Origin: Candidatus Hadarchaeota archaeon
Lineage (GTDB): Archaea > Hadarchaeota > Hadarchaeia > Hadarchaeales > JAGGTB01
DNA length: 64,000 bases
NCBI GenBank assembly: GCA_964384105.1
Contig: CAYLJV010000004.1
Location: 1 to 64,000, forward strand
Reading direction: 5' to 3'
This document shows, one piece after another, positions 50,202-53,405 of the stretch. The translations under genes and the position numbers were made by a program. The notes below the pieces were generated by a model, which saw nothing but the letters and a program-made list of their open reading frames with translations, had not been told where the DNA came from and ran no database searches. How positions within the stretch are numbered: the stretch's first letter is position 1; each line of letters begins with the position of its first letter.

Positions 50202-50738
50202 CTACTCAGAAAACTTATTGTAAGTGATGAATTCATTTAAGTCCTTTCTGGATTTCTTTTTCTTTTCTAAAGGTCTCTTTGGATATCCCATCGTCATCAG
50301 GCCTACTATCTTGCAATAGTCTGGAACTTCTAGAACTTCTTTTGCTTTTTCTTGATTAAAGGCTCCTATCCAGCACGTTCCTAGTCCTTCTTCTGCGGCC
50401 TTGAGACTGAGGTGATCGAGAGCTATAGTCACATCTACGATTCCAGAAGGAATCTCACAAGACATTGTATATTCGGGATCAGTAGTAACACCTGCCACTA
50501 CAGCTGACGCTTCTTTCACGAAATCCTGTCTGTTTGCCGCTCTGGATAATTCTTCTTTTTTCTTGCTATCCGTCACTACGACGAATTTCCAATCCTGTTT
50601 ATTGTTAGCAGATGGTGCCATTCTGACGCAATCCATAATCTTCTCAACTTTCTCTTGAGGAATATCCCTGCCCTCATACGATCTCACAGATCTTCTACTC
50701 AATATGGCTTCTTCAACATTCAAAATATCTATCTCCAA
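50202..50738 (-). CDS. Nitroreductase family protein
   Basis: RRSVRSY, APSANNKQDW, GLGTCWIGAF. Confidence 0.93.
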   Translation of the reverse strand: MEIDILNVEEAILSRRSVRSYEGRDIPQEKVEKIMDCVRMAPSANNKQDWKFVVVTDSKKKEELSRAANRQDFVKEASAVVAGVTTDPEYTMSCEIPSGIVDVTIALDHLSLKAAEEGLGTCWIGAFNQEKAKEVLEVPDYCKIVGLMTMGYPKRPLEKKKKSRKDLNEFITYNKFSE

Positions 50739-50819
50739 TTTATTTTGTAATTATTTAGTTAATTTCAATCTTATTTTTAATTTTGTTTTACCATTTTCTG
50801 GTTGTAATGGTTGTTTAAA

Positions 50820-50870
50820 ATGGAGGTACCGCCCCGGCCAGTCCTCGAAAGTCCGTGTGACCCTCTGATG
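50820..50870 (+). ncRNA. Candidate C/D-box-like guide RNA antisense to the 23S rRNA P-loop
   Basis: GTACCGCCCCGGCCA is complementary to UGGC(U/C)GGGGCGGUAC; CTGA at 50865-50868, followed by a T-tract; C boxes are poor. Confidence 0.45.
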
Positions 50871-51011
50871 TTCTTTTTATTTTTCTAAACAAACACTTTA
50901 GTGTTATAGAAAAATTTTTAACAAATTGTAAAAATATTTATAGGAGCTTGGGGGTGACCTAGAGAGAATTTTCCAGTTAAGGTGATTTTATTAACATTTC
51001 AGTTATCATGC

Positions 51012-51204
51012 TCCCGCCGGTGAATTTCTTCTCTTGAGAATCGAATTTTACAACACCGGCGGTATGTGCCCCTGGGATTTCTCAACTCCTTGTTTGCACA
51101 GCTAGGGGCACTGGGGCTGGGCGTGCCGGTGGGCTCTGCTTCGGTCGGCTACCGACTGTTTGTTTTGCAACCTGCCCGCGAAAGGGTAACATCCCCGGCC
51201 CCTT
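51012..51204 (+). ncRNA. Unidentified three-domain structured RNA
   Basis: Three GC-rich 9-10 bp stems, G-U pairs on the + strand, a cUUCGg loop, TATA-like TTTTATTAA at 50986-50994. Confidence 0.65.
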
Positions 51205-51321
51205 AATCTCACTATCTCGAACTCATAATTAGAATTAAAATGGTTTTCGGTTGACTAAAAAATCCTATACGAAACTTCCGGACTTATGGAAGTATTAATA
51301 ATTCTATAATGAAAGAATAAG

Positions 51322-51711
51322 TTGGTCTTAATGAATATTATTAATCTATTTCATATCCATAGGAAGTATATCTTCAAGCACTACTTCGATGAAAGTAACC
51401 TGTTTAGAGATTTACGTGATTACTACGACAGATCGGAATACAGGTTCGAAGTGGACGAGGACGAAGTAGATTACGTTGTCGAGAAACTCGAAGAATATGG
51501 ATACAGAGCCCATATCGTTGAAAGAAATGAGATATCGGACTACACTTTGATTATAGGCAGATACGATAAACAGGGAGACCTACTGAAAAACTCCGTGGAA
51601 GTCATTGAACTCGGAGACGAGAAGGCTCTAGTTATGAAGAGCAGGGTCGCAAAAGAAGAAGCCATGGACCGAGGAAGAGAGCCGAACGAAAAATGGAAAG
51701 CACGCCTCTGA
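51322..51711 (+). CDS. Conserved hypothetical protein (resembles haloarchaeal proteins)
   Basis: YIFKHYF..LF..LRDYY...YRFEV; acidic composition. Confidence 0.7.
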   Translation: MVLMNIINLFHIHRKYIFKHYFDESNLFRDLRDYYDRSEYRFEVDEDEVDYVVEKLEEYGYRAHIVERNEISDYTLIIGRYDKQGDLLKNSVEVIELGDEKALVMKSRVAKEEAMDRGREPNEKWKARL

Positions 51712-51932: not shown

Positions 51933-53405
51933 ATGTTTTCGTCAAAAATACCCAGATGTATGTCCACTCAACATCCGGACAATGCAAATCAGCCGATCTT
52001 TGCGAGCGACCCAGAAACGCTAAGAGATAAGGATGAGATTCTTGAAGCGTTCTTTGCCTACTCGGAGCTTAAATGTGATGAACAGATGTGGGATATAGAG
52101 GGAAAAGAAGCGAGTAGGTCAGTTGTTAGAGAACTACTTGAAGCACATCCTGATTTTTTCAAGGAAAACAAATTAGGGGAGGATCTTAGACTTACCGTTA
52201 GAATACCTAATCCAGAATACGAAAAAGTAGAACAAAAGGCAATACTCGAAATACTCGAGAACATACCGCGTTCTTATGATACTGCTAAGGTATTTTATGA
52301 TGATGGAACCGCGCCCATATACGAAGTTATCTTACCAATGACTACTTCTTCGAGGAGTTTAGAGAGGATATACCACTATTATCAAGGATATGTGTCGGGA
52401 AAGAAAGGTCATAGACCCTTCGACAAATCAATAGAAGAATGGGTAGGGGAAATAAAGCCCGATCGCGTGAATGTCATACCCTTAATAGAAGAAATGGATT
52501 ACATGTTGGAAGCTCACAACATAATCAGAGATTTTTTAGAGGAAAAGGAGATTGAGAGCCAAAGAGTTTTTCTTGCTAGGTCCGATCCAGCTCTGAATTA
52601 TGGATTGATCTCGGCAGTTTTGATAAACAAAATTGCATTAAGTAAGCTACAGAAGCTGGAAGAAAACGTTTCTACGAAGATATACCCGATACTCGGTGCC
52701 GGCTCGGCTCCGTTTAGGGGGAATTTATCTCCAGATCGAGTTGAGAATACTCTGGCAGAATACCCCTTCGTTCAGACATTTACAATACAGTCTGCTTTCA
52801 AATATGATTATCCGAAAGAAAAATCTTCAAAAGCCATAGAGATGATAAAAAATGCTAAAAGAAAAAGTATTGATCCGATGGATGAAAGAAAGTGCCTTTC
52901 ATTAATAGAGAAGGCAAAGGGGGACTATAGAAAAAAAGTATTGAGTCTAGCTTCGACTGTTAATAAACTATCTGAATACGTACCTTCGAGAAGATCAAGA
53001 AAACTTCATGTTGGATTATTCGGTTACTCTCGAGGGATAAATGGCGAGAATAAAAGTTTTAAACTCCCTAGGGCGATTAAATTCACTGCATCTTTATATT
53101 CTATAGGAGTCCCTCCTGAGATAATAGGGTTTAGTGCACTTTCTGAGAAAGATGTTGAATTTCTTGTGGATGAAGCTTATAAGAAAATTCTGACTGACCT
53201 TAAAGATGCAGCGCAATACTACAATGAAGATGTAGTTAAAGAGTTTCCTTTTTTAAAAGAAGATATGAAAAAAGTTCAGGAATATGTCGATGTAGAAATT
53301 AATGAAGAACATAAGGAAATAACAAATCAGATTTTGAATCAGGAAACGGATGATATGAAAGAAAAAATTCGACAGGCTGCAGAAATAAGGAAATTTTTAG
53401 GTTAA
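51933..53405 (+). CDS. ppcA: Archaeal phosphoenolpyruvate carboxylase
   Basis: IPRCMSTQHPDN, FLARSDPA, GSAPFRG, LPRAIKF. Confidence 0.96.
   Translation: MFSSKIPRCMSTQHPDNANQPIFASDPETLRDKDEILEAFFAYSELKCDEQMWDIEGKEASRSVVRELLEAHPDFFKENKLGEDLRLTVRIPNPEYEKVEQKAILEILENIPRSYDTAKVFYDDGTAPIYEVILPMTTSSRSLERIYHYYQGYVSGKKGHRPFDKSIEEWVGEIKPDRVNVIPLIEEMDYMLEAHNIIRDFLEEKEIESQRVFLARSDPALNYGLISAVLINKIALSKLQKLEENVSTKIYPILGAGSAPFRGNLSPDRVENTLAEYPFVQTFTIQSAFKYDYPKEKSSKAIEMIKNAKRKSIDPMDERKCLSLIEKAKGDYRKKVLSLASTVNKLSEYVPSRRSRKLHVGLFGYSRGINGENKSFKLPRAIKFTASLYSIGVPPEIIGFSALSEKDVEFLVDEAYKKILTDLKDAAQYYNEDVVKEFPFLKEDMKKVQEYVDVEINEEHKEITNQILNQETDDMKEKIRQAAEIRKFLG

Follow-up and report, generated by a model that had tools for sequence, protein, structure and literature searches.

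The window, meaning the whole 64,000-nt stretch of DNA that was analysed, contains a GC-rich segment of about 190 nt at 51012-51204, and this locus raises the question of whether it encodes a structured RNA and, if so, what such an RNA might do. The preliminary description treated it as a single locus, an assumption that did not survive a search of the source genome (G000; 1.62 Mb in 12 contigs, 90% complete, and 40% G+C). By BLAST and an nhmmer profile the RNA family there has exactly seven copies, with none beyond these seven at E ≤ 10, and nhmmer found no extra partial copies in that genome. The locus is one of seven paralogous, diverged copies of a structured non-coding RNA gene of ~200-250 nt with three hairpins. 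Pairwise identity of the core among the copies is only 41-76%, and the extents of the pairwise blastn alignments show that similarity begins about 100 nt before the core start and ends about 250 nt after it, giving a unit of ~350 nt. In each ~350-nt cassette, promoter-like boxes precede the three hairpin domains, and a T-rich tail follows them (Table 1). The RNA family is real, structurally constrained, and uncatalogued; it has several copies but is limited almost wholly to a single genome, and any function assigned to it is conjectural.

Table 1. Features of the copy under study (window coordinates) and the seven family copies in the source genome (contig coordinates)
Feature	Position	Strand	Basis
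Whole repeated unit	50929..51287	+	nhmmer envelope and pairwise blastn extents
Distal TATA-like box TTTATA, left edge of shared unit	50937..50942	+	Sequence; candidate promoter
Conserved G-rich, SD-like box GGGGGTGA	50950..50957	+	Motif count
Proximal TATA-like box TTTTATTAA	50986..50994	+	Sequence, alignment, comparison with 41 tRNA upstream regions
Domain 1	51014..51062	+	Direct reading, folding, inverted-repeat search
P1 CCGCCGGUG/CACCGGCGG	51014-51022/51054-51062	+	Also detected as inverted repeat
Domain 2	51066..51111	+	Direct reading, folding, seven-copy P2 comparison
P2 GUGCCCCUGG/CUAGGGGCAC	51066-51075/51102-51111	+	
Domain 3, most conserved part	51113..51202	+	Covariation in 8-sequence alignment, models R1 and R2
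P3	51113-51121/51194-51202	+	Direct reading
P3b GGUGGG/CCUGCC	51128-51133/51171-51176	+	Covariation
P3c UGC/GCA	51137-51139/51167-51169	+	Covariation
P3d hairpin GGUCGG/CCGACU (51143-51148/51152-51157)	51143-51157	+	Covariation
17-nt 3' bulge CGCGAAAGGGUAACAUC	51177..51193	+	Pairwise identity averaging 0.89, one of the highest regional values
3' tail with third CU-rich stretch AUCUCACUAUCUC	51203..51251	+	Alignment; common to the G002 fragment
Family copy under study	C4:50929-51287	+	nhmmer envelope
Family copy	C3:117696-118053	-	BLAST/nhmmer
Family copy	C3:120265-120634	-	BLAST/nhmmer
Family copy c1_135k	C1:135550-135916	+	BLAST/nhmmer
Family copy	C1:397537-397909	-	BLAST/nhmmer
Family copy c4_85k	C4:84824-85223	-	BLAST/nhmmer
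Family copy c1_154k	C1:153703-154109	+	BLAST/nhmmer

Fold and strand of the RNA

Direct reading of 50600-51500 confirmed all the coordinates of the three GC-rich hairpin domains that had been placed at 51014-51202 on the + strand. The element segment is 57% G+C, against 40% for the genome. On the + strand, its MFE of -84 kcal/mol compares with a mean of -66.3 for 200 dinucleotide shuffles (z -4.23), none of which was as good; for the - strand of the element the value was z -1.85, with 10 of the 200 shuffles as good. The wobble pairs had been read as G-U on the + strand, and the aligned copies bear this out. The absence of an ORF, also claimed for the element, is literally incorrect, since a GTG ORF of 46 amino acids spans 51066-51206, but correct in substance: its frame is broken by 1-nt and 7-nt indels between copies and the substitutions in the stems are compensatory, and for these reasons we judge it not to be coding.

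In the whole-RNA alignment (MAFFT, seven copies, RNAalifold structure), 90.8% of cells were paired versus 40-54% with slid partners, and eight pairs changed on both sides, a number reached by 1 of 500 shuffles. Over the whole-RNA and 3'-domain alignments, the shuffle mean for both-side changes was 2.3-3.1 and slid-partner pairing was 35-62% overall. The outer helices P1, P2, and P3 recur in the six other copies with different sequences, and when each copy was folded alone, P1 and P2 re-formed with different sequences in all seven. These results support a fold kept by compensatory changes in all copies. Covariation had been proposed as a check in the preliminary description, and the compensatory changes, in both the 7-copy and the 8-sequence alignments, do support the outer fold. 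No long-range 5'/3' closing helix is shared by the copies when RNAalifold is applied to the full units. Two further candidate helices were rejected: a UGC/GCG helix from RNAalifold, which is broken in two of the seven copies, and a helix X (UGCC/GGUA), which is 84% paired and has no double change.

Domain 3 required revision. Its outer helix P3 stands, but the inner arm CGGTGG/CTACCG of the preliminary description, real in this copy, breaks in the paralogs that were read through; covariation supports an inner fold of P3b, P3c, and P3d in its place. When the 3' domains of the seven copies were aligned with a relative from the congener G002, 93.7% of cells were paired and eight both-side changes were found, which none of 500 shuffles reached. 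P3b (consensus GGYRGG/CCYRCC) contributes three double-changing pairs with 100% of its cells paired, and P3c has the consensus UGY/RCA. A second inner arm, TGCCC-GCGAAA-GGGTA, does fit all copies in the source genome (94.9% paired) but shows no double change and, by eye, is weaker in the G002 relative. The 17-nt bulge on the 3' side, CGC[GAAA]GG[GUAA]CAU, is almost invariant; within it, two GNRA-type tetrads stand in tandem (C[GAAA]G and G[GUAA]C), and they are replaced in the G002 relative by GAGA and GCAA, which are again GNRA-type.

Loops, flanking signals, and known RNA classes

P1 is paired in 85.7% of cells of the seven-copy alignment, and above it domain 1 consists of an internal loop and then a small apical hairpin, UUCU-CUUG-AGAA (51029-51040), with a CU-rich UUCUCUU. 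P2 varies among the other copies, for example as GAGUCCCCCU/AGGGGGCUC and GUGUUCCCG/CGGGGGCAC, and the apical region of domain 2, UUUCUCAACUCCUUG, is CU-rich and anti-SD-like. The loops are more alike than the stems enclosing them, mean identity being 0.64 for loop 2 and 0.60 for the loop 1 apex versus 0.42-0.49 for the P2 strands. Reading the alignments, loop 2 is UUUCUCACCUCCUUG in three of the seven copies and a weaker version of this elsewhere; by eye, three of seven likewise carry UCACCUCCU, the same 9-mer as in the 3' end of 16S rRNA (GAUCACCUCCU). The anti-SD core CCUCC is, also by eye, intact in three copies and reads CUCC in two, CCCCC in one, and CUCU in one; the predicted apical stem pairs part of it with GGAG. 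The loop-2 hexamer UUUCUC has a predicted unpaired probability of 0.71-0.98 in the five copies carrying it. Actual start regions in the source genome, such as GAACAAGGAGGTGAAAATaaaATG, correspond to the complement of loop 2. A loop-2-like stretch at C4:~76.9 kb was rejected, as it lies inside a helicase-like gene. The 16S rRNA gene of this genome is split over two contig ends (C6:69770-70532 and C9:16055-16757), an assembly break, with a tRNA-Ala after its 3' end.

The heptamers TTGAGAA (51034-51040, loop 1) and TTCTCAA (51079-51085, loop 2) are present, as is the TTT[AG]CA motif in each domain (at 51047, 51093, and 51164). The kissing interaction that was suggested for the two loops fares worse: loop 1-loop 2 pairing beats 95% of shuffles in only one of seven copies (0.013 in the copy under study and 0.05-0.61 in the others), and the loop-loop kiss is not conserved in the family.

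Upstream of the core, distal TATA-like boxes are similar in five of the seven copies, by reading of the alignment, and precede the G-rich box. All seven copies have the motif GG[AG]GG at 44-67 nt before the core, versus 5.4% of background 70-nt windows. The CCUCC in loop 2 is complementary to this box, after which there is no start codon. A tRNA-like TATA box about 20 nt before P1 had been noted, and the proximal box does resemble the upstream regions of 41 tRNA genes in the source genome; in the copies, such a box lies 20-30 nt before P1 and is followed by a conserved initiator-like stretch, TTATCAYGC. We infer from these sequences that transcription starts near the proximal box. The 3' tail runs for ~50 nt after P3, has CUCAC-type motifs, and ends in AAAUGSUUUUCGG or in longer T runs in the copies. 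Its end here, AAAAUGGUUUUCGG, is possibly a T-rich terminator, which would place the 3' end of the RNA at about this point.

A search of Rfam 15, another of the proposed checks, gave no match to the element; at the gathering threshold, the window yields four tRNAs only. At E ≤ 10, the interval 50700-51350 gave ceN36-1 (21.6 vs. 48 bits) and rli60 (20.8 vs. 60 bits), both at chance level: the former, of the H/ACA type (E 0.19), is at 50819-50939, off the element, and the latter reaches only into P1. At E ≤ 1, the six other copies gave only SRP RNA, tRNAs, and two chance matches off the element. As the lack of their signatures had suggested, the element is neither SRP RNA nor RNase P RNA, both of which are found elsewhere in the genome with scores above cut-off (C4:84328-84638, 190 bits, and C3:148469-148758, 220 bits, respectively); their local alignment to the element is at shuffle level. 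No box ACA or ANA was found 3' of the lower stems: P1 is followed by UAU, UUU, AUU, AAU, AUU, AUU, or AUA, P2 abuts P3, and P3 is followed by UUA, UCA, or UUU. Inspection of the upper stems in the aligned copies revealed no tandem G.A motif with a 3-nt bulge, i.e., no K-turn or K-loop of the kind that forms an L7Ae site, and neither by eye nor by Rfam was any known protein-binding module (K-turn, SRP, or RNase P elements) recognised. Of the proposal that this is a new archaeal ncRNA class, a structured + strand ncRNA with no match in Rfam 15 remains, but its spread was overstated, being nearly limited to one genome. No description of such a family was found in the literature searched.

Distribution, context, and possible mobility

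Two models were used outside the source genome, R1 (207 positions of the RNA) and R2 (the 3' domain). In 65 genomes of the order, R1 found the seven copies described here, a single 39-bit match in the congener G002, and weak matches. Genomes with matches number 2 of 65 in the order/class and 2 of 52 in the phylum sample, with the source genome itself included in both counts, and R2 matched the same two genomes only (among 9 family, 65 class, and 52 phylum genomes). The family was not found in five of six congeners, and in 40 relatives no BLAST match had an E value under 0.007. The weak R1 matches in G001, G007, and G005:C246 (E 0.09-0.23) were treated as noise, and that in G005:C131 was rejected because, on reading, it is antisense to a coding region. 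An exact search with a degenerate 20-mer of the bulge region gave three genome and three metagenome loci, all of them chance matches in GC-rich sequence and none above 17.5 bits with R1; one of these loci carried an unrelated NiCo riboswitch. An exact-motif scan of viral contigs gave 0 matches, and BLAST of phage and plasmid collections gave none.

The only relative outside the source genome, the G002 sequence, is a partial, single-copy one: the 3' domain with a tail rich in C and U, ACUCACCUCCUCUCC...UAAAAUUGG. Its site is a ~175-nt spacer (G002:C102 1480-1660) of a pstC-pstA-pstB operon, where it separates pstA from pstB and is on their strand. The pstA-pstB gap is 2-10 nt in G000 and in G004, whose PstB is 89% identical to that of G002, and the spacers of G001 and G003 are AT-rich and have no 3'-domain structure. 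As these congeners lack the 3' domain between pstA and pstB, G002 carries an insertion. The TAAAATTG repeat that flanks the insert is within chance. The inserted 3' domain is closely followed by pstB and is accompanied by a CUCACCUCCU stretch and, downstream, by AAGGAGGUG; the spacer folds no better than shuffles (z -1.26), and in its MFE structure the CU tail is left unpaired with the SD.

Within the source genome, the neighbouring and downstream genes differ at all seven copies, and several of the downstream genes are convergent. Three of the copies are within 150 nt of a tRNA gene (at 3, 83, and 127 nt; P about 0.012 if copies were placed at random in intergenic sequence). One of them, c4_85k, abuts a tRNA-Ser beside the SRP RNA gene at the point where synteny with congeners ends; its neighbours are ordinary genes. 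Over C4:84328-84821, the order of an NcsA-like gene, SRP RNA, and tRNA-Ser(GCU) is kept in four congeners at ~70% DNA identity, and c4_85k, in convergent orientation, begins exactly where this synteny stops. At C3:115345-120634, two copies are each located upstream of a paralog of TFB (transcription factor B), the two TFB genes being ~66% identical in DNA, and small ORFs resembling HicA/HicB-type and RelE/ParE-type toxin-antitoxin genes were seen by eye beside c1_154k (C1:152080-153163). At 51933-53405, the window encodes an archaeal-type PEP carboxylase (PEPcase_2 by atlas features), which this query did not find in five congeneric genomes; the locus consequently gave no empty-site comparison.

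The preliminary description had set multi-copy occurrence as a MITE or IS end against its proposal. The element is indeed multi-copy, but its copies have no terminal inverted repeats, only AT-rich low-complexity inverted matches, and no target duplications, the longest flanking direct repeats being 6-8 nt and no better than shuffles. Nor was a transposase or integrase partner of the copies found, or any match to RVT_1, in this 90%-complete genome. There is one clear tnpB (C3:~6.8-7.0 kb); its 3' end is unrelated to the RNA (best R1 match 5.1 bits), and no family copy adjoins it. A CRISPR array at C1:451229-454340 has ~47 repeats (CTTAGAATCAGACTACTGTAGGATTGAAA...), and a CRISPR link was rejected, as the repeat bears no relation to the RNA family. 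Elsewhere the genome has ~24 copies (31 matches at ≤3 mismatches) of a hairpin repeat, TTTT-TTGTTATGGGTGTAACAA-AAAA, e.g., at C1:135913, and none on C4; it is often found after genes or tRNAs and also at contig ends, and one directly follows c1_135k. This repeat is perhaps a terminator-like or REP-like element. The proteome pI is not that of a salt-in halophile.

A possible partnership of the RNA with an element at 50.8 kb was not borne out, the latter being single-copy, outside the shared unit, and absent from all eight family relatives. This element (50826-50875 of the window) is a GC-rich island of ~50 nt, GGAGGTACCGCCCCGG...CCCTCTGATG, in an AT-rich spacer, and it folds weakly (-10 kcal/mol on the + strand and -17 on the -).

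Proposed function and comparison with known systems

The reading we prefer, at a probability of roughly one in three, is that the copies are sibling trans-acting RNAs that mask ribosome-binding sites via their CU-rich loops and bind a protein through the 3' domain. It is favoured because the CU-rich sites are laid out like the anti-RBS loops described for the archaeal sRNA154 and sRNA41, and the differing neighbours of the copies argue for action in trans. Each RNA would be made as a separate transcript of ~200-250 nt, acting in trans as a sibling regulator. Its rigid GC-rich scaffold would display three CU-rich stretches, UUCUCUU (loop 1), UUUCUCACCUCCUU (loop 2), and CUCAC (tail), and these would pair with the purine-rich ribosome-binding sites (AAGGAGGUGAnAAA) of target mRNAs and block the initiation of translation, with the near-invariant 3' domain and its tandem GNRA-type bulge serving as a protein-binding or stabilising handle. 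Much can of course be said against this. In an AT-rich genome, GC-rich helices may by themselves be enough to produce CU-rich loops and GGAG/CUCC stems, and complementarity to a generic ribosome-binding site says little about specific targets. It is the 3' domain, and not the putative seeds, that is most conserved, and 200+ nt with an elaborate domain exceeds a typical sRNA. Finally, the family is missing from five of six congeners, and its sole relative elsewhere is a fragment that has entered an operon; a mobile element would account for this pattern better than a regulator.

The main rival follows that last objection: a selfish or transplantable structured repeat that spreads as DNA within and between genomes, its host effects incidental and its structure serving its own propagation or stability. 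We hold this to be possible, if doubtful, and keep it close behind the sibling RNAs because the distribution is patchy and insertional: seven copies in one genome, nothing in most congeners or the rest of the order and phylum sample, a fragment between pstA and pstB that other congeners lack, three copies near tRNA genes, and synteny that stops at the tRNA-Ser by c4_85k. By its copy number, though not by gene associations, the family also fits the category of mobile or repeat sequence candidates that an intergenic RNA-motif survey defines by "multiple copies per genome" (PMC11109978). Against such a repeat are the lack of terminal inverted repeats and of flanking direct repeats beyond chance, the lack of a transposase, integrase, or RT partner (the single tnpB being unrelated at its 3' end and the neighbours of c4_85k ordinary), and the lack of matches in the phage and plasmid collections and viral contigs. 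Moreover, the edges of the unit resemble promoter and terminator signals rather than transposon ends, and the copies are old, yet they keep their fold by compensatory changes and G-U pairs on one strand, which points to selection on the RNA.

A further explanation makes the RNA a protein-binding scaffold or sponge, with the GNRA bulge and the CU-rich and UCAC-type motifs as sites for KH-type proteins or factors that bind the 16S 3' end, and seven copies providing dosage. Archaeal KH proteins bind the 16S 3' end. The bulge is among the most conserved regions, its GNRA-type tetrads are kept in G002, where the 3' domain alone survives, both loops and the tail have motifs of a similar kind, and loop 2 has the 16S 3'-end 9-mer; however, the motifs are short and of low complexity, no neighbouring gene is conserved, and no known protein-binding module was recognised. 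We regard this explanation as improbable. A broader proposal is rated lower again. It holds that the family is a self-contained transplantable RNA gene, a promoter-to-terminator cassette that would multiply and leave fragments in operons of relatives with no recognisable transposase, its 3' domain an unknown RNP or catalytic module and its loops mimicking the 16S 3' end to capture ribosome-binding sites or factors that bind the 16S tail. Action in cis, as a riboswitch or thermosensor in which the 3' domain toggles between P3b and UGCCC-GCGAAA-GGGUA to control a downstream gene, is very unlikely. Both hairpins fit every variant in the source genome, and the G002 3' domain is immediately upstream of pstB, but each of the seven copies has different downstream genes, several of them convergent, no pair of the alternative hairpin changes on both sides, the G002 spacer neither folds better than shuffles nor pairs its CU tail with the SD in the MFE, and no riboswitch family matched. 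Least probable is a self-cleaving or otherwise catalytic RNA, for which only the invariant core-like bulge in a multi-helix domain and the multi-copy habit speak; no Rfam 15 ribozyme matched (E ≤ 10 for this copy and E ≤ 1 for the others), and no known catalytic core was recognised.

If expressed, the seven copies would constitute a rare large paralogous family of sibling structured RNAs in an uncultured archaeon, and archaeal post-transcriptional regulation has few worked examples. The family offers a fold backed by covariation, an invariant motif of 17 nt, and a directly testable anti-RBS hypothesis. If mobile, it would be an RNA-gene cassette that spreads with no transposase, which is likewise unusual. 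With one genome and one fragment, its reach is so far narrow, and it is a good lead rather than a broad discovery.

Among known systems, the omega-RNA of TnpB (IS200/IS605) is also a structured RNA of ~150-200 nt tied to a mobile element, with orphan copies possible, but the 3' end of the tnpB in the source genome has no similar sequence or structure, and no family copy is found there. MITE-like and other mobile-repeat candidates (PMC11109978) are alike in being multi-copy and patchy, as is the insertion into a relative's operon spacer; they differ in that the family has no inverted ends, target duplications, or associated transposase, integrase, nuclease, or helicase genes, and its copies are old and structurally constrained. 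Archaeal H/ACA guide sRNAs share the layout of two or three consecutive hairpins, each with a GC-rich lower stem of ~9 bp, an internal loop, and an upper stem. In the element, however, the hairpins are followed by AUU-type triplets or by nothing instead of a box ACA or ANA, the ACA-like triplets are inside loops, no K-turn or K-loop was recognised, and no H/ACA model matched.

The bacterial sibling sRNAs LhrC1-5, RsaE/RoxS, and Qrr exist as several paralogs with multiple CU-rich, single-stranded hairpin sites complementary to the SD. This likeness is one of arrangement across two domains of life; there is no homology, and the bacterial RNAs are much smaller. In Methanosarcina mazei, sRNA154 (by its loop 2) and sRNA41 mask ribosome-binding sites, for which a block of initiation was proposed (PMC5867862). 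Like the element, these are intergenic archaeal RNAs with stable stem-loops and an anti-RBS loop. The element has no sequence or Rfam relationship to them and differs in its larger size, its three domains, its invariant 3' module, and its seven diverged copies.
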